A DNA stretch of 64,000 nt from Candidatus Woesebacteria bacterium (GTDB lineage Bacteria; Patescibacteriota; Microgenomatia; UBA8517). Below are positions 1 through 51,181 of this stretch, piece by piece. The DNA lies in the NCBI GenBank assembly GCA_016700095.1, contig CP065002.1, forward strand, positions 368,463-432,462, written 5' to 3'. The position numbers and the translations under genes were made by a program. Within the stretch, counting starts at the first letter, position 1, and each line of letters starts with the position of its first letter. Below the pieces are notes generated by a model. It had not been told where the DNA came from and did not search any database. It worked only from the letters and a program-made list of their open reading frames with translations.

Positions 1-2678
1 TAAATCAATACCTGTTGTTATCCCTCCTGCTTCACTTACAAAGGAGAGACCAGTTGCTACTGCCGTATCCGTATCTGAATTATCAAGGACAAGTAGAGCT
101 TCGGTTGCCCCACTACTTGCTGCATTATCAATTACCAATCCGTTTTGAGTACCACTTGAGCTGGCATTGGTTAAAGTAAGGGTAGTGGAGTTGGCATTTG
201 CTGTTCCACTAAGAGCCTGGTTTACTGCGAGTAAACTATCCGAATCAAGAGTAATTGTCAGGTCGTCGGTTCCAGCCGGTGTAAACCCTACATTACCTGT
301 AAAGGTAAAATCATAGTCCTGGTTAACAGCAACATCATCTGCATTAACGGTAATGCCATTACCTGCTCCAACGGTAAAGGTGGTATCACCATCTGCACCG
401 ACAAGGACATTATCTGCTCCACCTGTAAGGCCACTTCCTGCAACTGCGTCACCTAGTAGCCTTACTGTAAAGTCAAGGTTTTCATCACCATCATCACCGT
501 TAGTTAGATTGGTTAGTATATTGCCATCACTACTGGTGAACCTTAAGATGTTGGCATCCACAACAGAGTAGGTATCAGTATCATCATCGGCTATCGTCCA
601 GGAAGAGAAAGCACTTACACTGGTTGTCCATCCGCAGTTGGTTTCAGAAACATCGCAGACCAAATCATCTCCCCAGTACAGATCTCCCGATGCACTTCCT
701 GCTGAAGCTGCATTGAAGCTAAAGACATTGTCAGTATCTGCATCATCATTAAGGCCTAAGGTGGTGCCATCAACAGACAAATTGCCTGTGATATTAACAT
801 CACCCACATTGGCATTATCTGTAATGGTCATTAGATCATTACCCGAGGTATCTTCAAAGGTTAGAGTACCTGTTGTACTTTCAAACATCCTTACTCCATC
901 AAAGAGTAAAAAGTTTGCATCAAGGTCAAGTGCTGTAACAATATCAGTATCACTTAAATCAATACCTGTTGTTATCCCTCCTGCTTCACTTACAAAGGAG
1001 AGACCAGTTGCTACTGCCGTATCCGTATCTGAATTATCAAGGACAAGTAGAGCTTCGGTTGCCCCACTACTTGCTGCATTATCAATTACCAATCCGTTTT
1101 GAGTACCACTTGAGCTGGCATTGGTTAAAGTAAGGGTAGTGGAGTTGGCATTTGCTGTTCCACTAAGAGCCTGGTTTACTGCGAGTAAACTATCCGAATC
1201 AAGAGTAATTGTCAGGTCGTCGGTTCCAGCCGGTGTAAACCCTACATTACCTGTAAAGGTAAAATCATAGTCCTGGTTAACAGCAACATCATCTGCATTA
1301 ACGGTAATGCCATTACCTGCTCCAACGGTAAAGGTGGTATCACCATCTGCACCGACAAGGACATTATCTGCTCCACCTGTAAGGCCACTTCCTGCAACTG
1401 CGTCACCTAGTAGCCTTACTGTAAAGTCAAGGTTTTCATCACCATCATCACCGTTAGTTAGATTGGTTAGTATATTGCCATCACTACTGGTGAACCTTAA
1501 GATGTTGGCATCCACAACAGAGTAGGTATCAGTATCATCATCGGCTATCGTCCAGGAAGAGAAAGCACTTACACTGGTTGTCCATCCGCAGTTGGTTTCA
1601 GAAACATCGCAGACCAAATCATCTCCCCAGTACAGATCTCCCGATGCACTTCCTGCTGAAGCTGCATTGAAGCTAAAGACATTGTCAGTATCTGCATCAT
1701 CATTAAGGCCTAAGGTGGTGCCATCAACAGACAAATTGCCTGTGATATTAACATCACCCACATTGGCATTATCTGTAATGGTCATTAGATCATTACCCGA
1801 GGTATCTTCAAAGGTTAGAGTACCTGTTGTACTTTCAAACATCCTTACTCCATCAAAGAGTAAAAAGTTTGCATCAAGGTCAAGTGCTGTAACAATATCA
1901 GTATCACTTAAATCAATACCTGTTGTTATCCCTCCTGCTTCACTTACAAAGGAGAGACCAGTTGCTACTGCCGTATCCGTATCTGAATTATCAAGGACAA
2001 GTAGAGCTTCGGTTGCCCCACTACTTGCTGCATTATCAATTACCAATCCGTTTTGAGTACCACTTGAGCTGGCATTGGTTAAAGTAAGGGTAGTGGAGTT
2101 GGCATTTGCTGTTCCACTAAGAGCCTGGTTTACTGCGAGTAAACTATCCGAATCAAGAGTAATTGTCAGGTCGTCGGTTCCAGCCGGTGTAAACCCTACA
2201 TTACCTGTAAAGGTAAAATCATAGTCCTGGTTAACAGCAACATCATCTGCATTAACGGTAATGCCATTACCTGCTCCAACGGTAAAGGTGGTATCACCAT
2301 CTGCACCGACAAGGACATTATCTGCTCCACCTGTAAGGCCACTTCCTGCAACTGCGTCACCTAGTAGCCTTACTGTAAAGTCAAGGTTTTCATCACCATC
2401 ATCACCGTTAGTTAGATTGGTTAGTATATTGCCATCACTACTGGTGAACCTTAAGATGTTGGCATCCACAACAGAGTAGGTATCAGTATCATCATCGGCT
2501 ATCGTCCAGGAAGAGAAAGCACTTACACTGGTTGTCCATCCGCAGTTGGTTTCAGAAACATCGCAGACCAAATCATCTCCCCAGTACAGATCTCCCGATG
2601 CACTTCCTGCTGAAGCTGCATTGAAGCTAAAGACATTGTCAGTATCTGCATCACTGTTTAGGCCGAGAGTGTTTCCGT
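1..2678. repeat. Tandem 954-bp (318-aa) coding repeat, about 2.8 near-identical copies (1-954, 955-1908, 1909 to about 2678); first copy may extend left of the window
   Basis: Identical shadow ORFs at 353/1307/2261 and 638/1592/2546 give a period of 954. Exact sequence identity was seen at 1.., 955.. and 1909..; divergence begins near 2650-2680. Confidence 0.9.
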
Positions 2679-5600
2679 CAATAGCAACATTACCCGAGAA
2701 GGTGGTGAGGGCAACATTTACATCAAGATCGTTATCGCCAAAGTCCAGTGAGGGATCGGTGGCACCTGAGGTATTAAATGTCCATGTAAAATCTGAGCCT
2801 GCTCCAAATGTAGAGCCGGCGATTTCTGTAGTATCCAAATTAAGAGTAATTGTGTCTGTTGTATCACTAACATCAGTATTGATACCGTTTGTACCACCTT
2901 GGATTATAAGGGTTTCTCCAGAACCAATCGACCTTGTATCACTATCGTCACCATCAATGTTCCAACCGGTATAACCGCCTGAGCCGGCAGACACATCGAT
3001 CCACGAAAGAACCCCGTTACTATTTGTAGAAAGAACTTGTTGATTTCCACCGTCCGCTGTGGGTAATGTATAAATTACATTACCAGCTAATACATCGGGT
3101 GCCTTGAAACCCGTGTAGTTATCTCCGTTTGCTTCCAATTCTTGAAACCTTACTTCACCGGTATTTCCCGCAGACGCTCCAAAGGGATTTAGATTGAGGG
3201 CTGAAGCCGAAACGTCTATAAACAAGGGCGCTTCGCCATCTGATCCGCCGATTGCCAAATCATAAGCAGTTTCTGTTAAGTAAGTTACGTCAGGAGTGGG
3301 GGTGGTGTTCACCGACCATTTTGATGAACCGGATGAAGCTGTCCATCCGCAGTTGGTTTCAGAAACATCGCAGACCAAATCATCTCCCCAGTACAGATCT
3401 CCCGATGCACTTCCTGCTGAAGCTGCATTGAAGCTAAAGACATTGTCAGTATCTGCATCATCATTAAGGCCTAAGGTGGTGCCATCAACAGACAAATTGC
3501 CTGTGATATTAACATCACCCACATTGGCATTATCTGTAATGGTCATTAGATCATTACCTGAGGTATCTTCAAAGGTTAGAGTACCTGTTGTACTTTCAAA
3601 CATCCTTACTCCATCAAAGAGTAAAAAGTTTGCATCAAGGTCAAGTGCTGTAACAATATCAGTATCACTTAAATCAATACCTGTTGTTATCCCTCCTGCT
3701 TCACTTACAAAGGAGAGACCAGTTGCTACTGCCGTATCCGTATCTGAATTATCAAGGACAAGTAGAGCTTCGGTTGCCCCACTACTTGCTGCATTATCAA
3801 TTACCAATCCGTTTTGAGTACCACTTGAGCTGGCATTGGTTAAAGTAAGGGTAGTGGAGTTGGCATTTGCTGTTCCACTAAGAGCCTGGTTTACTGCGAG
3901 TAAACTATCCGAATCAAGAGTAATTGTCAGGTCGTCGGTTCCAGCCGGTGTAAACCCTACATTACCTGTAAAGGTAAAATCATAGTCCTGGTTAACAGCA
4001 ACATCATCTGCATTAACGGTAATGCCATTACCTGCTCCAACGGTAAAGGTGGTATCACCATCTGCACCGACAAGGACATTATCTGCTCCACCTGTAAGGC
4101 CACTTCCTGCAACTGCGTCACCTAGTAGCCTTACTGTAAAGTCAAGGTTTTCATCACCATCATCACCGTTAGTTAGATTGGTTAGTATATTGCCATCACT
4201 ACTGGTGAACCTTAAGATGTTGGCATCCACAACAGAGTAGGTATCAGTATCATCATCGGCTATCGTCCAGGAAGAGAAAGCACTTACACTGGTTGTCCAT
4301 CCGCAGTTGGTTTCAGAAACATCGCAGACCAAATCATCTCCCCAGTACAGATCTCCCGATGCACTTCCTGCTGAAGCTGCGTTAAAGCCAAAGACATTGT
4401 CAGTATCTGCATCACTGTTTAGGCCGAGAGTGTTTCCGTATGCTTCGAAAGTTCCATCTACCTGCATATTGCCTGCGGAAGTAAGACTAAGTACTTCAGT
4501 TGTCCCGTTAGTGAATGTTAAATCATTATCTGTAGCAACTGATGTAAGTGTCCATGTATCAGCTATATCGTCGCCTTCATCGGCATCGAGAATAAATGTT
4601 GCATCTTCCGCCTCATTACCCTTTATATCAAACAACGCTTCCGGATTAGAATTATTAATTCCGACATTACCATCAGCATCAGCAAATATAGTGTAATCAG
4701 TAGTATCAGGATCTCTTCTAATTGCAAAAATACCTCCGAAGTCCTCACCGTTGTAATCTATGAGAAAACTACCTTTTCCATGGAATGTATCGTCTGTGGG
4801 TTCGCTGACAAATTGCGCCAATTTAGCACCCGTGGAATCATGAAACTCAATACCTAAATAATTTGCTCCTGTTGATGCAGTTGTACTTATTATGATATTA
4901 CTTGTATCACTGTCAACTACATGTAAGTCGCCACTTGGTGTTCTCGTTCCAATGCCTACATTTCCACCGGGATTAAAAGTAAGATCAACACTTCCATTTG
5001 TAGTTAAATCGATGGCTGTTGCTGAATCCTCGTCGAAATCAAAGGTCAACGTATTTGTACCATCTGCAAGTGACACTTCTGAATTAATTGAATTTGATAT
5101 TGTTTCATCGTTTTGCAAGGTAATATTTCCACCTTGGATATCAATCGCTCCCGTAAAATTAAAATTGTTTGTGGTAGCTAATATTGTATTGTCACCAAAT
5201 CCGAGTGATGTGTCGACACCGCCTGAAGCATTATATGTCCAGGTTATAGCTGATCCGCTTCCGAAAGTTGTGGTTCCAATCTCCGTTGTATCAAGGTTTA
5301 TCGTCACTGTGTCAACAGTACTATCAACAGTATCTATTCCATTCGTTCCTCCGATGATACTTAAAGTGTTGCTGTCTGCTATTTCCTGGCCACCACCAGA
5401 ATCACCGGCAACCGTAAACGAAGAGAAAGCACTTACACTGGTTGTCCATCCGCAGTTGGTTTCAGAAACATCGCAGACCAAATCATCTCCCCAGTACAGA
5501 TCTCCCGATGCACTTCCTGCTGAAGCTGCATTGAAGCCAAAGACATTGTCAGTATCTGCATCATCATTAAGGCCTAAGGTGGTGCCATCAACAGACAAAT

Positions 5601-8600
5601 TGCCTGTGATATTAACATCACCCACATTGGCATTATCTGTAATGGTCATTAGATCATTACCCGAGGTATCTTCAAAGGTTAGAGTACCTGTTGTACTTTC
5701 AAACATCCTTACTCCATCAAAGAGTAAAAAGTTTGCATCAAGGTCAAGTGCTGTAACAATATCAGTATCACTTAAATCAATACCTGTTGTTATCCCTCCT
5801 GCTTCACTTACAAAGGAGAGACCAGTTGCTACTGCCGTATCCGTATCTGAATTATCAAGGACAAGTAGAGCTTCGGTTGCCCCACTACTTGCTGCATTAT
5901 CAATTACCAATCCGTTTTGAGTACCACTTGAGCTGGCATTGGTTAAAGTAAGGGTAGTGGAGTTGGCATTTGCTGTTCCACTAAGAGCCTGGTTTACTGC
6001 GAGTAAACTATCCGAATCAAGAGTAATTGTCAGGTCATCGGTTCCAGCCGGTGTAAACCCTACATTACCTGTAAAGGTAAAATCATAGTCCTGGTTAACA
6101 GCAACATCATCTGCATTAACGGTAATGCCATTACCTGCTCCAACGGTAAAGGTGGTATCACCATCTGCACCGACAAGGACATTATCTGCTCCACCTGTAA
6201 GGCCACTTCCTGCAACTGCGTCACCTAGTAGCCTTACTGTAAAGTCAAGGTTTTCATCACCATCATCACCGTTAGTTAGATTGGTTAGTATATTGCCATC
6301 ACTACTGGTGAACCTTAAGATGTTGGCATCCACAACAGAGTAGGTATCAGTATCATCATCGGCTATCGTCCAGGAAGAGAAAGCACTTACACTGGTTGTC
6401 CATCCGCAGTTGGTTTCAGAAACATCGCAGACCAAATCATCTCCCCAGTACAGATCTCCCGATGCACTTCCTGCTGAAGCTGCATTGAAGCCAAAGACAT
6501 TGTCAGTATCTGCATCACTGTTTAGGCCGAGGGTGGTTCCGTATACAGAAAGGGTTGAAGTAAAGACTCCCGAACCGTTTACGGTGAATAGATTGTCAGC
6601 AAATGAGAGAAGATCTAAATCTGAACTTAATCCAATATTTGTACCATCAACCGTTAAAGAATCAATATTTAACTGAGTTCCTGTTATAACCCCTGCTGTT
6701 GTGATAGTCGCATTTGTTCCACCGACAGTAAAAGAAGCGTTTGTAACGTCGAGGCCGTTTTCGGCATCTACGTTACCTGAAAAACTAACTTGACCGGTTG
6801 AATTAAAATCAAGCGCGCCTGTACCAAGCGTTGATAGTGTCAAAGCACCAAGATCAATACTTGTAGCACTATCAAGAGAAAGAGTATCCGACAGTTCAGT
6901 GAAATTTAAGATATCATCGGCGATTGTTACGTTGGCTTCGTTGGCAGGGGAAGCTGTGACTGAGAAATCGGATGAAAAATCTATAGTATCCACGTTTACA
7001 CCTACAGTGCTGTCATTGTTTTCTATATTGACGATTGCAAATGCTGCACCGGAATCAGTTGAACACTCCCATGAGTCGTTTGCCTCATTCCATTTTAGAA
7101 CTTCACCATTTGCACATCCTTGCAGTAATCCAATTCCTCCGGCAAATACTTCCAGTCCAGATCCATTACTTACAGTTGAAGAAAGTCCATTTGTGGCTGT
7201 AATAGTTTGTATGGTCAACGCATTCGCACTAAGCGTCAAACCATCACCGGTGAAATCTGAAATAGTTTCCGAGTTAATAGTGATATCTCCTGCGATTTCT
7301 AGATTTCCACTATTATCTACGTCAAACAAATTATTACCCAGACTGTCCTCAAAAACGACCAGATCGCTTGATTGGGTACTATTGCCTTGTACAAGTAATT
7401 GAATTTCGTTAGAATCGCCGTCGATCGCTAATTTTGACGATAGGGAAGAATTGCCACCAATAATTACTTCGTCTGTTGTATTGTTTAAATAAATGAAACC
7501 GGTTTGTTGTGACCATTTTGAACTTCCGGCGCCAATCGCGGCATCCAAGTCATCAAGCACATCTTGGACATTTGTGCCTGAAGAATTAGCGAATTCAGCA
7601 AAAACTCCCACAAGTGAAGCGCCTGACATGTCTTCGTCTGATCCGGTATCGTTCAAACCGATTAAACCAATAGTTACATCTTGTCCTGAAGCAATTGTAA
7701 CTCCACCGACATCGGTGGTTATGCTGTCTGCAGTCAGGCTGTCTTGGATATCCACATTGCCTCCGGCGTTTATTGTTAACGTGGCTCCGTCGGCGGTAAT
7801 CATATCTCCATTTACCGCAAGATTACCGGTGATCGTCAAATCTCCGGCACTCTCATCAAAAAACAAAGCGGCGGTCGAATCGAGACCACCTATTGCAAAG
7901 TCATCTGTGAGACTTGTAAGGTAAGTAACTGTACCTGCGTCAGTAAAAAGGGAACTGGTTCCGGTTTTATCCTCTGCCCATGTAAATGTGCCTGTTGCGG
8001 AATTGTATGTTAGCACCTGATTGTCGGATGGGGTATTGGTTACCGACAGATGTCTGACAGTTATAGCTTCATCAGATATTTCGGATGATTCGACAGTATC
8101 ACCTATAACAGTTTCCAGAACATTATTAATTACTTGTAAGCCTGTACCTGTAAAATCGGCGATTGTATCTTGAGATAGCGTAAGTGAAGCTCCAATTTCT
8201 AACTCCCCAGAAACAAAAAAATCGCCGTTGGCGAGGTCTATTGTTGGAATTCCTGTACCTATAGTGACACCTCCACCTCCTGGATCGATAATTATGTCAC
8301 TAACCGATGTAATTGTATTGCCGGATAGATTCAATACTCCACCGATATCTAAGTTGCCATCAACACTGGCATCATTTTTTAAATTTGTTTTTACATAAAC
8401 ATTGAAAGACTGATCTGCGATAGATTGACTAGTCAAAGCTAGTACTTTGCTTTCTTTGTTTATGCTTTGTTTATCCATGCTTGCAATACGCACGGGGAAA
8501 ACCCTTGTCATTGTTTCGTTTATGTTTTTCTTTACCGCATTTGGAGTGATATGGCTTATTATTTTTATAGAGCTTAATGTAAGAAGTAATACTCCGGCTA

Positions 8601-8910
8601 AATATAACATTTTTTTAATCACTCTTTTTTGGTCAATTTGTAGGCTTGAATATATTTGAGGCGATGCAAGAGTTGACGTTCTTGAAGCCATTGGGATATA
8701 TGAATTAACAATTCGCAATTTTTTGTTCTTCTTTGGCTTAATTGATAAAAGCTGAGCTTTTGAATAGCGTCTATGTTTTCCTGAAGTACGGGTGGGAATA
8801 AGTATGTTTCGTTGTTCCCACCTCCTTAAAGTTTTTTGAGAAACTTTTAGAAACTTAGCGGCTTCTTGGATTGTTAAATCAGATGAAAATTTAGAATCGG
8901 GCAGTGTCAT
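1..8910 (-). CDS. Giant repetitive cell-surface protein (at least 2970 aa in window; C-terminal end lies beyond window start). N-terminal HTH_17/excisionase-MerR-like motif, one TM helix, then a G/T/S/D/N-rich beta-solenoid-like repeat region
   Basis: Hand reverse-translation from ATG at 8910..8908 gives MTLPDSKFSSDLTIQEAAKFLKVSQKTLRRWEQRNILIPTRTSGKHRRYSKAQLLSIKPKK..., then MLYLAGVLLLTLSSIKII (TM, Met at 8610..8608), then NKESKVLALTSQSIADQSFN... An in-frame stop lies upstream at 8940..8938. Spot checks at 1-60, 3001-3060, 4441-4500, 7021-7080 and 8161-8220 found no minus-frame stops. No minus ORF appears in the track, consistent with a run-off ORF. Confidence 0.75.
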   Translation of the reverse strand, partial: MTLPDSKFSSDLTIQEAAKFLKVSQKTLRRWEQRNILIPTRTSGKHRRYSKAQLLSIKPKKNKKLRIVNSYIPMASRTSTLASPQIYSSLQIDQKRVIKKMLYLAGVLLLTLSSIKIISHITPNAVKKNINETMTRVFPVRIASMDKQSINKESKVLALTSQSIADQSFNVYVKTNLKNDASVDGNLDIGGVLNLSGNTITSVSDIIIDPGGGGVTIGTGIPTIDLANGDFFVSGELEIGASLTLSQDTIADFTGTGLQVINNVLETVIGDTVESSEISDEAITVRHLSVTNTPSDNQVLTYNSATGTFTWAEDKTGTSSLFTDAGTVTYLTSLTDDFAIGGLDSTAALFFDESAGDLTITGNLAVNGDMITADGATLTINAGGNVDIQDSLTADSITTDVGGVTIASGQDVTIGLIGLNDTGSDEDMSGASLVGVFAEFANSSGTNVQDVLDDLDAAIGAGSSKWSQQTGFIYLNNTTDEVIIGGNSSLSSKLAIDGDSNEIQLLVQGNSTQSSDLVVFEDSLGNNLFDVDNSGNLEIAGDITINSETISDFTGDGLTLSANALTIQTITATNGLSSTVSNGSGLEVFAGGIGLLQGCANGEVLKWNEANDSWECSTDSGAAFAIVNIENNDSTVGVNVDTIDFSSDFSVTASPANEANVTIADDILNFTELSDTLSLDSATSIDLGALTLSTLGTGALDFNSTGQVSFSGNVDAENGLDVTNASFTVGGTNATITTAGVITGTQLNIDSLTVDGTNIGLSSDLDLLSFADNLFTVNGSGVFTSTLSVYGTTLGLNSDADTDNVFGFNAASAGSASGDLYWGDDLVCDVSETNCGWTTSVSAFSSWTIADDDTDTYSVVDANILRFTSSDGNILTNLTNGDDGDENLDFTVRLLGDAVAGSGLTGGADNVLVGADGDTTFTVGAGNGITVNADDVAVNQDYDFTFTGNVGFTPAGTDDLTITLDSDSLLAVNQALSGTANANSTTLTLTNASSSGTQNGLVIDNAASSGATEALLVLDNSDTDTAVATGLSFVSEAGGITTGIDLSDTDIVTALDLDANFLLFDGVRMFESTTGTLTFEDTSGNDLMTITDNANVGDVNITGNLSVDGTTLGLNDDADTDNVFGFNAASAGSASGDLYWGDDLVCDVSETNCGWTTSVSAFSSFTVAGDSGGGQEIADSNTLSIIGGTNGIDTVDSTVDTVTINLDTTEIGTTTFGSGSAITWTYNASGGVDTSLGFGDNTILATTNNFNFTGAIDIQGGNITLQNDETISNSINSEVSLADGTNTLTFDFDEDSATAIDLTTNGSVDLTFNPGGNVGIGTRTPSGDLHVVDSDTSNIIISTTASTGANYLGIEFHDSTGAKLAQFVSEPTDDTFHGKGSFLIDYNGEDFGGIFAIRRDPDTTDYTIFADADGNVGINNSNPEALFDIKGNEAEDATFILDADEGDDIADTWTLTSVATDNDLTFTNGTTEVLSLTSAGNMQVDGTFEAYGNTLGLNSDADTDNVFGFNAASAGSASGDLYWGDDLVCDVSETNCGWTTSVSAFSSWTIADDDTDTYSVVDANILRFTSSDGNILTNLTNGDDGDENLDFTVRLLGDAVAGSGLTGGADNVLVGADGDTTFTVGAGNGITVNADDVAVNQDYDFTFTGNVGFTPAGTDDLTITLDSDSLLAVNQALSGTANANSTTLTLTNASSSGTQNGLVIDNAASSGATEALLVLDNSDTDTAVATGLSFVSEAGGITTGIDLSDTDIVTALDLDANFLLFDGVRMFESTTGTLTFEDTSGNDLMTITDNANVGDVNITGNLSVDGTTLGLNDDADTDNVFSFNAASAGSASGDLYWGDDLVCDVSETNCGWTASSGSSKWSVNTTPTPDVTYLTETAYDLAIGGSDGEAPLFIDVSASALNLNPFGASAGNTGEVRFQELEANGDNYTGFKAPDVLAGNVIYTLPTADGGNQQVLSTNSNGVLSWIDVSAGSGGYTGWNIDGDDSDTRSIGSGETLIIQGGTNGINTDVSDTTDTITLNLDTTEIAGSTFGAGSDFTWTFNTSGATDPSLDFGDNDLDVNVALTTFSGNVAIDGNTLGLNSDADTDNVFSFNAASAGSASGDLYWGDDLVCDVSETNCGWTTSVSAFSSWTIADDDTDTYSVVDANILRFTSSDGNILTNLTNGDDGDENLDFTVRLLGDAVAGSGLTGGADNVLVGADGDTTFTVGAGNGITVNADDVAVNQDYDFTFTGNVGFTPAGTDDLTITLDSDSLLAVNQALSGTANANSTTLTLTNASSSGTQNGLVIDNAASSGATEALLVLDNSDTDTAVATGLSFVSEAGGITTGIDLSDTDIVTALDLDANFLLFDGVRMFESTTGTLTFEDTSGNDLMTITDNANVGDVNITGNLSVDGTTLGLNDDADTDNVFSFNAASAGSASGDLYWGDDLVCDVSETNCGWTTSVSAFSSWTIADDDTDTYSVVDANILRFTSSDGNILTNLTNGDDGDENLDFTVRLLGDAVAGSGLTGGADNVLVGADGDTTFTVGAGNGITVNADDVAVNQDYDFTFTGNVGFTPAGTDDLTITLDSDSLLAVNQALSGTANANSTTLTLTNASSSGTQNGLVIDNAASSGATEALLVLDNSDTDTAVATGLSFVSEAGGITTGIDLSDTDIVTALDLDANFLLFDGVRMFESTTGTLTFEDTSGNDLMTITDNANVGDVNITGNLSVDGTTLGLNDDADTDNVFSFNAASAGSASGDLYWGDDLVCDVSETNCGWTTSVSAFSSWTIADDDTDTYSVVDANILRFTSSDGNILTNLTNGDDGDENLDFTVRLLGDAVAGSGLTGGADNVLVGADGDTTFTVGAGNGITVNADDVAVNQDYDFTFTGNVGFTPAGTDDLTITLDSDSLLAVNQALSGTANANSTTLTLTNASSSGTQNGLVIDNAASSGATEALLVLDNSDTDTAVATGLSFVSEAGGITTGIDL
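3341..4440. repeat. Dispersed copy (about 1.15 units) of the 954-bp module inside the giant gene
   Basis: Offset 2715 from copy 1: 3296..3817 matches 638..1102 and 4022..4240 matches 353..571. Similarity starts at gtccatccgcagttgg (3341) and diverges after the ...SASLFRPRVFP-equivalent near 4440. Confidence 0.85.
5419..6545. repeat. Dispersed copy (about 1.15 units) of the 954-bp module inside the giant gene
   Basis: Offset 4818 from copy 1: the tail of 4892..5920 matches 638..1102 and 6125..6343 matches 353..571. It diverges near 6545. Confidence 0.85.
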
Positions 8911-9756
8911 GATAATTTTTATACTATGAGATAATATTTATTTTTGTTATTTATAATTAATAAAACTTAGACAAATATATGTATATATAGCTTTAAATGT
9001 CTATATTTATTAAGACAGATAAGTAAATTATTGTCAAGCCTAAAGTGTCTACTAAAAATAGGATAATATAAACCGCAAAATACATACAGAAAATACGTGA
9101 TGACATTTGATGTATTTAGTAAGTATTGGATGAGGTGTTTTTAAAGGTTTTTATCAAAAATACTACATCTAACCAATAATTTAGTGCTGACATATCTTAG
9201 AAATCAAATTAGAGAACACTAAGATAGTGCGTGAATTAAAAATGCATATATAATTATTATGTTAAAAATAGGCATAAAAGGAGAGGTTTATTAACAATTA
9301 ATTATATAAAACGCATAATATAAGCACAATAAACGCAGTTATTGCCAGACTTTATGTAATGCGGTAATTATATTGCAGGCACATTATTATTTATTTAGAT
9401 ATATATACCGCGGATATTGCAGTAATAATATATATCGTGAAATACTTCTCTGCCTCATACGGTAATTTGTATATACACGACATAATAAATAGAATATAGG
9501 ATATTATAAGGCTAATATTATAAATATTTTAGTATGCGGAAATATTATTTTATAGTATTGATTGAAAATACATCCCATCAAACATGTATTAGATATTTGA
9601 CCTATCGGTAAAACTATTTAACAATAGAGTAGGATTTAAGTTATGGGAAATTCAAAATATATAGGCCGATTTGTTTTTATTTCTTTTTGAGTTAGATATA
9701 TAAATACATTGCAAGGAAAAACAAAATGCAATAAACGACATTTTGTTTTAGTATGA

Positions 9757-10542
<786 letters not shown>

Positions 10543-50371: not shown

Positions 50372-51181
50372 ATGCCCATGTTTGACGATCAAGTACATGC
50401 CCAAAATAATGAGAATAATTATCCGCAACCTATTCAGCCCGAAGAGGTTAGTTCCAGCCAACATGTTTATCACGCGACTTCGAGTAAAAGACTTGCCCAA
50501 AGCCCGGTTCTATACCTTGCTTTAATTGTCACCTTTGGATCAATTGTGACTACGGGATTACTCGCAAGATCATTATTTACGAAAACACCTCAACAAGCGG
50601 CCAGTGCGAGCGACAGATTTCTCAACTTATCCTATTTATATAAAAGCGATATTCGAAAAGGTGAGGGTGCAAAGATTTTGTACAAACCGGCTTCTCTTTT
50701 GAACATGGAAGTTTTGTATGTTTTGACCTTCGACAATGATAAATATACCCTGAATGAGGAGATAAACGGCATCGTGCAGATATCGGGATCGAAAATTACC
50801 ACAACAAGTGATAATGGAAAATATACCAAGGATTACAAACTTGCGCCTGAAGCGATATTTTTCCTCGATGCGGGCAAGGGTTCACTTGCGACACTGGGAA
50901 GAGACTATGCGTCTGATTTTTTTAATACAGACCGCAAAGTCTATTACGATGTCCTGATTGATAAGGTAAGTGGCGAAGAAACGGTAGTTGTTGTTTATTT
51001 GACTGCCGGACCCGATTATAAACTGAATGTCGGATTTCTCACGGGGGCAGTGACGGAAAAAATTCCCGGAGATAGCGAGTTTACGCTCATGAATTCATCG
51101 GAGCGGGGAAGTGATTATTCACAGGTGTTAAATTTAAATATGGAGACAAAGATCATAAACCTCGAAGAACTTGTCAAGTGA
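50372..51181 (+). CDS. Hypothetical membrane-anchored protein
   Basis: N-terminal cytoplasmic segment then TM VLYLALIVTFGSIVTTGLLA; 269 aa. Confidence 0.45.
   Translation: MPMFDDQVHAQNNENNYPQPIQPEEVSSSQHVYHATSSKRLAQSPVLYLALIVTFGSIVTTGLLARSLFTKTPQQAASASDRFLNLSYLYKSDIRKGEGAKILYKPASLLNMEVLYVLTFDNDKYTLNEEINGIVQISGSKITTTSDNGKYTKDYKLAPEAIFFLDAGKGSLATLGRDYASDFFNTDRKVYYDVLIDKVSGEETVVVVYLTAGPDYKLNVGFLTGAVTEKIPGDSEFTLMNSSERGSDYSQVLNLNMETKIINLEELVK

Follow-up and report, generated by a model that had tools for sequence, protein, structure and literature searches.

What purpose could a DNA-binding domain serve at the N-terminus of a giant surface protein? The question is raised by a gene of Candidatus Woesebacteria whose 5' 8.9 kb lie on the minus strand of a 64,000-nt stretch of the genome (assembly GCA_016700095.1, contig CP065002.1, positions 368,463 to 432,462), referred to here as the window. 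The candidate phyla radiation (CPR), or Patescibacteria, are thought to be ultra-small and mostly uncultured episymbionts with few recognisable regulators, and how they sense and attach to their hosts is an open question. The gene occupies some 1 % or more of a genome of ~1.3 Mb, and the most conserved part of its product is a helix-turn-helix (HTH) domain of the DNA-binding type. The HTH is followed by one transmembrane (TM) segment and by a repeat-built body, a fibre that presumably reaches well past the cell surface and is physically joined to the HTH. The product is probably, though far from certainly, a membrane-tethered DNA binder of the BldC/Xis type carried on a giant extracellular fibre, and in the broad sense a transmembrane one-component regulator.

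The reading frame is open from position 8910 to position 1 over 2,970 sense codons, in agreement with the first-pass annotation of this DNA, which had reported no stop before the window edge. An in-frame TAA lies 10 codons upstream, and the ATG at 8910 is therefore the first ATG of the frame. Over its whole length the translation matches residues 1-2970 of the GenBank protein QQS39313.1 (P0080) at 100 % identity; this is a Candidatus Woesebacteria protein of 3,881 amino acids (aa) that is encoded on a contig of 1,274,238 bp and carries the automatic name "MerR family DNA-binding transcriptional regulator". The tail of the database protein (residues ~3865-3881) reads '...ANANSTTLYFNQCQLKWYSKRIGN' where the repeat consensus reads '...ANANSTTLTLTNASSSGTQNGLVIDN', and it looks like the product of a frameshift inside a near-identical 954-nt repeat. 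Hence, 3,881 residues are to be taken as the minimum length, and the actual protein may be longer. An alternative genetic code is ruled out for the window, where TGA is the stop codon of genuine genes, iPGM and atpA among them. A Shine-Dalgarno sequence was said to be missing at both candidate starts, which is true though uninformative, because nearly every gene of the window is also without one; it was found upstream of almost none of the ~47 open reading frames (ORFs) of at least 150 aa.

Three Pfam domains match residues 12-57 above their gathering cutoffs, namely MerR (PF00376, 45.4 bits against 28.2), HTH_17 (PF12728, 39.5 against 27) and MerR_1 (PF13411, 38.6 against 21.6). The HTH_17/MerR motif that had been read at the N-terminus, and expected as an HTH_17 match within residues 1-60, is thereby confirmed. 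The same domains are carried by the two complete homologs, L009 (3,014 aa) and L015 (1,815 aa). AlphaFold2 models the segment as strand-helix-helix-wing-helix, with a predicted local distance difference test (pLDDT) of 75-87. The best structural matches of the model in the PDB by Foldseek are BldC-DNA complexes (38 % identity, root-mean-square deviation (rmsd) 1.6 A, TM-score 0.74-0.76 on the target), followed by RacA-DNA, the Pukovnik Xis, and then GlnR, CarH and SoxR. Likewise, a phmmer search of the PDB with the sequence returned BldC (6AMK/6AMA) at E 3e-5.

The resemblance to MerR proteins is confined to the winged helix. The C-terminal antiparallel coiled-coil dimerisation helix and the effector-binding domain of classical MerR regulators are both missing; the MerR_1 match spans only profile positions 2-46 of 69, and full-length MerR structures superpose at low rmsd over ~50 residues only. 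Scores against the NCBIfam equivalogs were 16-17 bits for MerR/CueR (cutoffs ~150) and 21.7 bits for IS607 (cutoff 110). The 'excise' domain TIGR01764 is passed marginally, at 29.0 bits against 28.8; since no recombinase lies beside the giant gene, a role in recombination directionality is not implied by it, and a Pfam scan of the 2,970 residues returned no serine-recombinase domain (PF00239). The OmpR-type domain Trans_reg_C is absent among the 16 Pfam families that matched residues 1-200 at E<=1. From sequence and model, the HTH is best described as a monomeric winged helix of the BldC/Xis type that has neither a dimerisation coiled coil nor an effector domain, and it stands outside the classical MerR regulators and, by the NCBIfam threshold, outside the BldC family.

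A basic linker joins the HTH to the membrane. The polypeptide is predicted to be disordered from the helix at 51-57 up to the TM segment, with pLDDT <50 at residues 62-85, and the linker is hypervariable in both length (21-199 aa, median 62) and sequence across the homologs. The TM segment MLYLAGVLLLTLSSIKIIS begins at residue 101 and has a Kyte-Doolittle hydropathy of 1.87, the next-best 19-mer of the 2,970 residues reaching 1.28; AlphaFold2 places a helix at 92-121 (pLDDT 71-81), and a counterpart is present in 13/13 genome homologs. Residues 1-100, of which the peptide FSSDLTIQEAAK is a part, hold 23 K/R and 5 D/E and thus a net charge of +18 before the membrane, as compared with 38 K/R, 430 D/E (a net charge of ~-390) and 16 Cys in the visible part after it. 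This asymmetry points unambiguously to the topology of a signal anchor, and the giant protein is accordingly predicted to be a type-II (N-in/C-out) membrane protein. The ToxR-like arrangement proposed in the first-pass annotation, with a cytoplasmic HTH, one TM helix and a huge outer body, is upheld by the domain matches, the hydropathy scan and the charges; its single helix after the HTH stands as well, while the spacing of about 35 residues has to be corrected to ~44.

It was also asked whether the HTH and the membrane protein are one polypeptide, as translation could in principle begin at Met-101 (ATG 8610), with the HTH as an untranslated or separate in-frame leader, or the fusion could be an artefact of assembly or annotation. 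This ATG stands directly before the TM segment, and a weak promoter-like match lies at 8636-8609; likewise, the near-identical 3' repeats and the frameshift-like tail of the database entry indicate that the assembly is not flawless. Homologous loci were compared on this point, and the set consisted of 13 genome loci (one genome per species scanned) and 3 metagenome contigs, 16 loci in total. Queries with the first 260 residues had returned three divergent metagenomic homologs (31-36 % identity) with the HTH, the linker, the TM segment and the same start of the ectodomain. The 13 genome loci share one layout, with the HTH at about residues 12-55, the TM segment at residues 108-178 and then the giant ORF, which in five of them is longer than 3,400-3,800 aa where the retrieved DNA ends. 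Thus the search for homologs with the same succession of HTH, TM segment and repeats, recommended in the first-pass annotation, was fruitful, at these 16 loci and in ~100 sequence clusters.

HTH, linker and TM segment lie in one frame at all 16 loci. Short gene calls among the metagenomic homologs are explained by local interruptions of the frame. For example, L001 (ENA contig k141_437763) has one in-frame TGA at 1370-1372, opposite a Gly of the window protein, with homology running >460 codons further; it could reflect a code 25-like recoding of UGA as Gly, readthrough of the codon or an error in the sequence. Similarly, the metagenome contig L002 has a frameshift beyond which the homologous body continues, and in a Woesebacteria genome (L005) whose N-terminus is identical to that of L002 the ORF is unbroken. 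The invariant residues of the HTH are encoded by 2-6 synonymous codons across the 16 loci (R29, for instance, by AGG, AGA, CGA, CGC and CGT), and the ratio of nonsynonymous to synonymous substitution in the HTH (dN/dS) is ~0.17, with dS mostly saturated. The frame stays open through linkers of widely different length in ~100 independent clusters, no Met before the TM segment is conserved anywhere in the alignment, and independent assemblies of many metagenome-assembled genomes (MAGs) and projects contain this fusion. The synonymous codon turnover, the low dN/dS, the open linkers and the missing Met lead to rejection of the internal start, and little short of nothing is left of the probability of a leader or an artefact. 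The comparison indicates that the HTH is translated, is under selection at the protein level and forms one polypeptide with the TM segment. The two starts had been held to be indistinguishable from the sequence; across 16 loci they can be told apart.

The fusion is not restricted to one genome. When 1.84 billion cluster representatives were searched exhaustively with HMMER, 216 were returned at E<=1e-30, and 160 representatives were re-scanned with a hidden Markov model (HMM) of the HTH only. The HTH lay within the first 130 residues in 102 of the 160, and in 95 it was followed by a TM segment; 48 of these 95 have at least 1,000 aa, 22 at least 3,000 aa and six at least 5,000 aa, the longest member having 7,954 aa. 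A word-indexed profile search found ~25 members, all of them partial, in Woesebacteria, Levybacteria and the 'Patescibacteria group', and the family is fragmented in most assemblies. The names under which members are deposited include 'MerR family... partial', 'Virion structural protein, partial', 'Filamentous hemagglutinin family outer membrane protein' and 'excisionase family DNA binding protein', so that proteins of 3,000-8,000 aa are misnamed systematically as transcriptional regulators, virion structural proteins, filamentous hemagglutinins or excisionases. Beyond the family, the HTH is closest in sequence to the IS607 serine recombinases, which have ~203 aa (E ~1e-13 to 1e-16). A viral origin of the fusion is ruled out by its absence from the IMG/VR viral contigs, where only HTH matches of ~45 aa were obtained, in ORFs with a median of 200 aa, none of them giant and none covering the TM segment or the ectodomain.

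The chromosomal position of the gene is conserved. At 12 of the 13 genome loci it is divergent from the gene of a ~258-aa secreted/membrane protein, followed by iPGM, the ATP-synthase b and delta-like genes and atpA, across an AT-rich intergenic region of 111-1,062 bp. In the window, too, the gene has common cellular genes as neighbours (iPGM, F-type ATP synthase subunits, leucyl-tRNA synthetase, ComEA, ComEC). This constancy of position implies a vertically inherited gene and not a mobile or phage one, and the comparison suggests a conserved, single-copy envelope gene of Woesebacteria-type CPR bacteria. Membership among phage tail fibre or virion proteins finds no support in the window either, as its ectodomain has no PHROG match and its context is not viral. 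Eight of the MAG records in the set (L004, L007-L011, L015, L016) bear the title 'uncultured Pseudomonadales' or 'Gammaproteobacteria bacterium'; their neighbourhood is CPR-typical in 7/8, and the taxonomic labels of the eight are probably wrong. The exception in position is L016, a genome of 1.6 Mb, in which a second giant ORF of 2,855 aa (770-9337, plus strand), directly upstream of the HTH-TM gene at 9986 and on the same strand, replaces the usual iPGM/ATP-synthase neighbourhood.

The pattern of conservation within the HTH bears on what it binds. When 15 sequences are aligned, conservation is much the highest in the HTH, which has 15 invariant columns (I14, A17, L21, V23, K26, T27, L28, R29, R30, W31, T42, G44, R47, R48, Y49). 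In BldC, DNA is contacted by T27, T29, K33, W31, R47 and R48 (phosphates, wing), H46 (minor groove) and R30 and K26 (bases), and the head-to-tail interface between monomers is made of F21, V23, W31, E16-R22, L11, I40, T42, L43 and G44 (PMC5859096). By the phmmer alignment, the contact residues K26, T27, R30, W31, H46, R47 and R48 are identical in the window protein and have the same numbering, and so are E16, V23, T42 and G44 of the interface. Across the family alignment, each of these shared positions is either invariant or conserved to 90 % or more, and I40 is retained by most members. Since these contact residues of BldC are retained, the HTH is inferred to bind DNA, and with moderate confidence it may be taken to do so while tethered to the membrane.

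The same conservation tells on another possibility, in which the HTH has been repurposed for a cytoskeletal, secretion or assembly partner and serves only to anchor or position the fibre. RodZ, which has a cytoplasmic HTH and a single TM segment and binds the protein MreB rather than DNA, is the precedent, and an N-terminal HTH before a signal-anchor TM segment would suit such a targeting role equally well. Against it are the invariant residues, which correspond to the phosphate, base and minor-groove contacts of BldC (K26, T27, R30, W31, H46, R47, R48), the very basic N-terminal segment, and the type of the domain, MerR/HTH_17 as against the XRE type of RodZ. A RodZ-like role is therefore given little chance.

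A candidate target of the HTH is found at the promoter of the giant gene itself. An alignment of the 110 nt that precede the start codons showed a sigma-70-like promoter (TTGACA, N17-18, TTAATAAA-like) across the loci, and directly after it stands T(T/A)(G/A)GACA(T/A), with the consensus TTGGACAT, in 1-3 copies at 14 of the 16 loci (L001, L004-L016). There is usually a second copy, either direct or inverted, 20-30 nt further downstream. In the window the pair reads 5'-TAGACA-N23-TGTCTA-3' and lies 57-93 nt before the ATG; it is the sole paired site in the 64 kb, over which the motif is not enriched. The pattern T[TA][GA]GACA[TA] has 22 matches in the 16 x 130 nt upstream of the start codons, where 0.6 would be expected by the frequency in the remainder of these loci (~37-fold), and the motif is kept in L016 despite the different upstream neighbour. 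An RNA hairpin formed by two copies is ruled out as a general explanation by the direct repeats at several loci, and the mixed orientations fit half-sites of a monomeric winged HTH better. Similarly, Rfam gave only chance-level matches on 8700-9900 and no terminator was found there, so that a known riboswitch or leader is rejected. It is suggested tentatively, with low confidence, that the giant protein's own HTH may bind the TTGGACAT-type pair and thereby autoregulate a costly gene.

Past a juxtamembrane spacer, the proximal ectodomain opens with the family-conserved 'KVLA..S..F.V.V' (K155-A158), which is followed by a module of the form 'LNLSGNT.TS..D..IDPGGGGVTIG'. The module of ~60 aa (LNLSGN.LTS..DL.IDPGGGGV.IG; profile positions ~213-275) occurs in up to 28 copies in proteins that have no HTH. 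Two such module-rich proteins were tested (P0075 and P0113), and both match phrog_6002 and phrog_4527 (phage virion structural / short tail fibre), which explains one of the database names, 'virion structural protein'. The body beyond is rich in T (13.7 %), D (12.5 %), G (11.5 %), S (9.9 %) and N (8.3 %), so the G/T/S/D/N-rich repeat composition noticed at first is corroborated, and it contains seven repeat units, each opening with GDLYWGDDLVCDVSETNCGWT (at residues 818, 1136, 1519, 1837, 2106, 2424 and 2742). The 954-nt DNA of the 318-aa units is 99.7-100 % identical from unit to unit. The repeats were characterised by script, as Tandem Repeats Finder stops at periods of 500 nt and theirs is 954 nt. 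In the database the 318-aa repeat is rare, and one unit is matched by only seven proteins. The ectodomain of the window has no significant Pfam match (sub-threshold PLipase_C_C and Big_2 only), its segments have no PHROG match at E<=1e-3 and no PDB match by sequence, and the visible part shows no sign of a signal peptide or of LPXTG or RTX features. From its composition, its repeats and the phage-fibre module, the ectodomain would be an extracellular fibre. In L009 a weak Peptidase_G2/IMC-like match lies near the C-terminus (E 1e-3, below cutoff), in a domain that is common to L015, P0099 and P0163 only. In another record (L024, 9603-11633) the N-terminal module recurs in a smaller architecture, where an HTH and a TM segment at residue 72 precede a 677-aa ectodomain with fibre-like repeats of the form 'GKVGIGTE.P..KL.V', and different kinds of ectodomain may share the HTH-TM head as a reusable anchor.

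How such a protein could work may be outlined as follows. The basic disordered linker and the one TM segment would join the cytoplasmic DNA-binding HTH to the acidic, repeat-built fibre. The HTH would be the first part to leave the ribosome, with RNA polymerase still near the promoter, and it would occupy the TTGGACAT-type pair that lies over the promoter and transcription start of its own gene, resulting in autoregulation. Lateral clustering or oligomerisation of the fibres, such as a host surface might induce on contact, would change the local concentration of the HTH and thereby its cooperative DNA binding in the manner of BldC. As BldC forms cooperative, DNA-templated head-to-tail multimers on AT-rich direct repeats and the linker appears too disordered for allostery, the ectodomain would most plausibly act through the concentration of the HTH; that clustering tunes DNA binding is proposed with low confidence.

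Several points weigh against the reading as a tethered regulator. DNA binding by the HTH and any regulatory role are deduced from sequence, and the route of information from a fibre of 3,000-8,000 aa through one TM segment and a disordered linker is not evident. The score against the NCBIfam BldC family NF033787 is 33.9 bits, as against a cutoff of 77, and the family does not conserve the interface positions L11 and L43 of BldC. The TTGGACAT motif emerged post hoc from the very sequences on which it was scored, and it could be the site of another factor (e.g., the free 74-aa HTH protein of the window), a part of the promoter or of the initially transcribed sequence, or a -35-like box; indeed, TAGACA-18-TATATT scored as promoter-like in the window. 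The ectodomain could not be modelled (pLDDT ~50), and hence the 'fibre' and its oligomeric state are assumptions; AlphaFold2 gave a mean pLDDT of 51.7 for residues 1-640 (17 sequences) and of 49.3 for the 318-aa repeat (9 sequences).

The disordered, hypervariable linker argues against allosteric signalling, and it thereby also favours an architectural tether, in which the membrane-anchored HTH pins the nucleoid or a specific locus to the membrane under the fibre in the manner of RacA or Noc and organises the chromosome or the polarity of a very small cell without passing on any extracellular signal. RacA, a chromosome-anchoring MerR-like winged HTH, is among the top structural matches, the HTH is without an effector-binding or dimerisation module, and the gene is a syntenic 'core' gene and not an accessory sensor. 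The motif pair at the gene's own promoter suggests gene-specific control instead, with the reservation that its binder is only inferred. Such a tether appears unlikely, though it deserves to be kept in view, and it and the tethered regulator are not mutually exclusive.

The ectodomain could also act through proteolysis, as in Notch, RsgI or TcpP, where a ligand or tension would induce site-1/site-2 cleavage and free the ~100-residue HTH as a soluble BldC-like factor. Free BldC-type proteins of ~70 aa do act as soluble regulators (PMC5859096), and a free paralogous HTH of similar size is encoded in the window. The conserved juxtamembrane KVLAA, 30-60 aa past the TM segment, could be a processing site, and regulated proteolysis is described for the transmembrane regulators TcpP and CadC. 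The release model is nonetheless very unlikely to be correct, as no cleavage motif was identified in or beside the TM segment and no conserved protease partner adjoins the gene at the loci compared, though no search aimed at a site-2 protease was made. A broader analogy to outside-in signalling of the Notch/integrin type, in which host contact by the fibre would lead to clustering, tension or cleavage, then to DNA binding by the HTH and to transcription including that of its own gene, is considered distinctly improbable. If it were true, attachment would reprogram transcription directly, without a kinase or a second messenger, which would suit the presumably minimal regulatory repertoires of CPR bacteria.

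The features of the window that were used in this analysis are collected in Table 1.

Table 1. Features of the giant gene, of its upstream region and of other genes discussed, in window coordinates.
Feature	Position	Strand	Basis or remark
Giant gene, 5' 8.9 kb (residues 1-2970)	1..8910	-	stop-free, crosses window edge
Winged HTH of MerR/HTH_17 type, cytoplasmic, BldC/Xis-like (residues 12-57)	8740..8877	-	Pfam, AlphaFold2, Foldseek, phmmer
Basic cytoplasmic linker, largely disordered (predicted) (residues 58-100)	8611..8739	-	charge, pLDDT, variability
Single TM helix, predicted signal anchor, N-in/C-out (residues 101-121)	8548..8610	-	hydrophobicity, AlphaFold2, charge
Juxtamembrane spacer and non-repeated proximal ectodomain (residues 122-817)	6460..8547	-	conserved alignment blocks
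Acidic G/T/S/D/N-rich repeat region (residues 818-2970)	1..6459	-	self-comparison, 318-aa offset dominant
Five 318-aa repeat units	6459-5506, 4356-3403, 2595-1642, 1641-688, 687-1 (partial)	-	self-comparison
Two variant repeat units	5505-4357, 3402-2596	-	self-comparison
Predicted promoter and candidate operator of the giant gene	8967..9037	-	sequence, 16-locus comparison
-35 box TTGACA	9037-9032	-	sequence reading
-10-like TTAATAAA	~9013-9006	-	sequence reading
TAGACATT, overlapping the predicted transcription start	9003-8996	-	candidate operator copy
TTGTCTAA, inverted copy	8974-8967	-	candidate operator copy
258-aa ORF (GTG start), N-terminal signal-like segment, C-terminal TM helices	9766-10542	+	no Pfam/NCBIfam match
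Free HTH_17/MerR_1 protein, 74 aa	49929-50153	-	HTH_17 E 7e-11; 39 % identical to the HTH of the giant protein
269-aa single-TM protein, divergent from the free 74-aa HTH gene	50372-51181	+	no family match

Two other genes of the window deserve a comment. The divergent 258-aa gene could be a conserved envelope partner or merely the first gene of the operon. The free 74-aa HTH protein, already listed in the first-pass annotation and recovered here on the minus strand, could compete with the giant protein for the same DNA sites. The GC skew of the plus strand is steadily positive from ~8 kb on and negative over the giant gene, which fits the orientation of the genes.

Among known systems, BldC of Streptomyces (PDB 6AMK/6AMA) is the closest in structure and sequence, with the same numbering and with no dimerisation helix or effector domain in either protein; it is the founder of the family of MerR-like winged HTH proteins without a coiled coil (PMC5859096). 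BldC is a free cytoplasmic protein of 68 residues, whereas the HTH described here heads a membrane protein of 3,000-8,000 aa. RacA of Bacillus subtilis and the excisionases Xis and RdfS of phages and ICEs share the MerR-like winged-helix fold and are architectural binders that tether or bend DNA. None of them is integral to the membrane; RacA reaches the pole through DivIVA by means of a coiled coil, and excisionases have a recombinase partner, of which there is none beside the giant gene. The IS607 recombinases are nearest in HTH sequence outside the family and differ by their size of ~203 aa, their PF00239 domain and the absence of a TM segment. Phage fibre proteins share the ~60-aa proximal module by way of the HTH-less proteins, and giant adhesins are alike in size and in acidic repeat composition, though the body shares no known adhesin domains. 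To our knowledge, no giant adhesin with a cytoplasmic DNA-binding domain is known.

The general layout has its counterpart in the transmembrane transcription regulators (TTRs), for example ToxR, TcpP, CadC, ChiS and TfoS, in which an N-terminal cytoplasmic DNA-binding domain is followed by a single TM segment and an extracytoplasmic C-terminal part. The periplasmic sensor domains of ToxR and CadC have only a few hundred residues, as against 3,000-8,000 aa of repeats here, and their winged HTH is of the OmpR type (Trans_reg_C) and not BldC/Xis-like. TTRs are defined by a predicted DNA-binding domain and at least one predicted TM segment (Demey et al., 2023; PMC10269533), and with its HTH and single TM segment the giant protein falls under this definition. 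The main text of that census does not mention MerR, HTH_17 or CPR (PMC10269533); likewise, a published survey of giant genes does not mention MerR, HTH or Woesebacteria, and no description of a MerR/BldC-type HTH-TM-giant surface protein fusion or of this CPR family was found in the literature searched. The fusion may provide a direct connection between cell surface and chromosome; if the HTH does bind DNA, it would be the most direct bacterial coupling of this kind known to us, and the class of transmembrane regulators would be extended to BldC-type domains and giant ectodomains. What was already known is the sequence, public though misnamed, and the TTR class as such, and what appears to be new is the architecture, its conservation and the promoter element.

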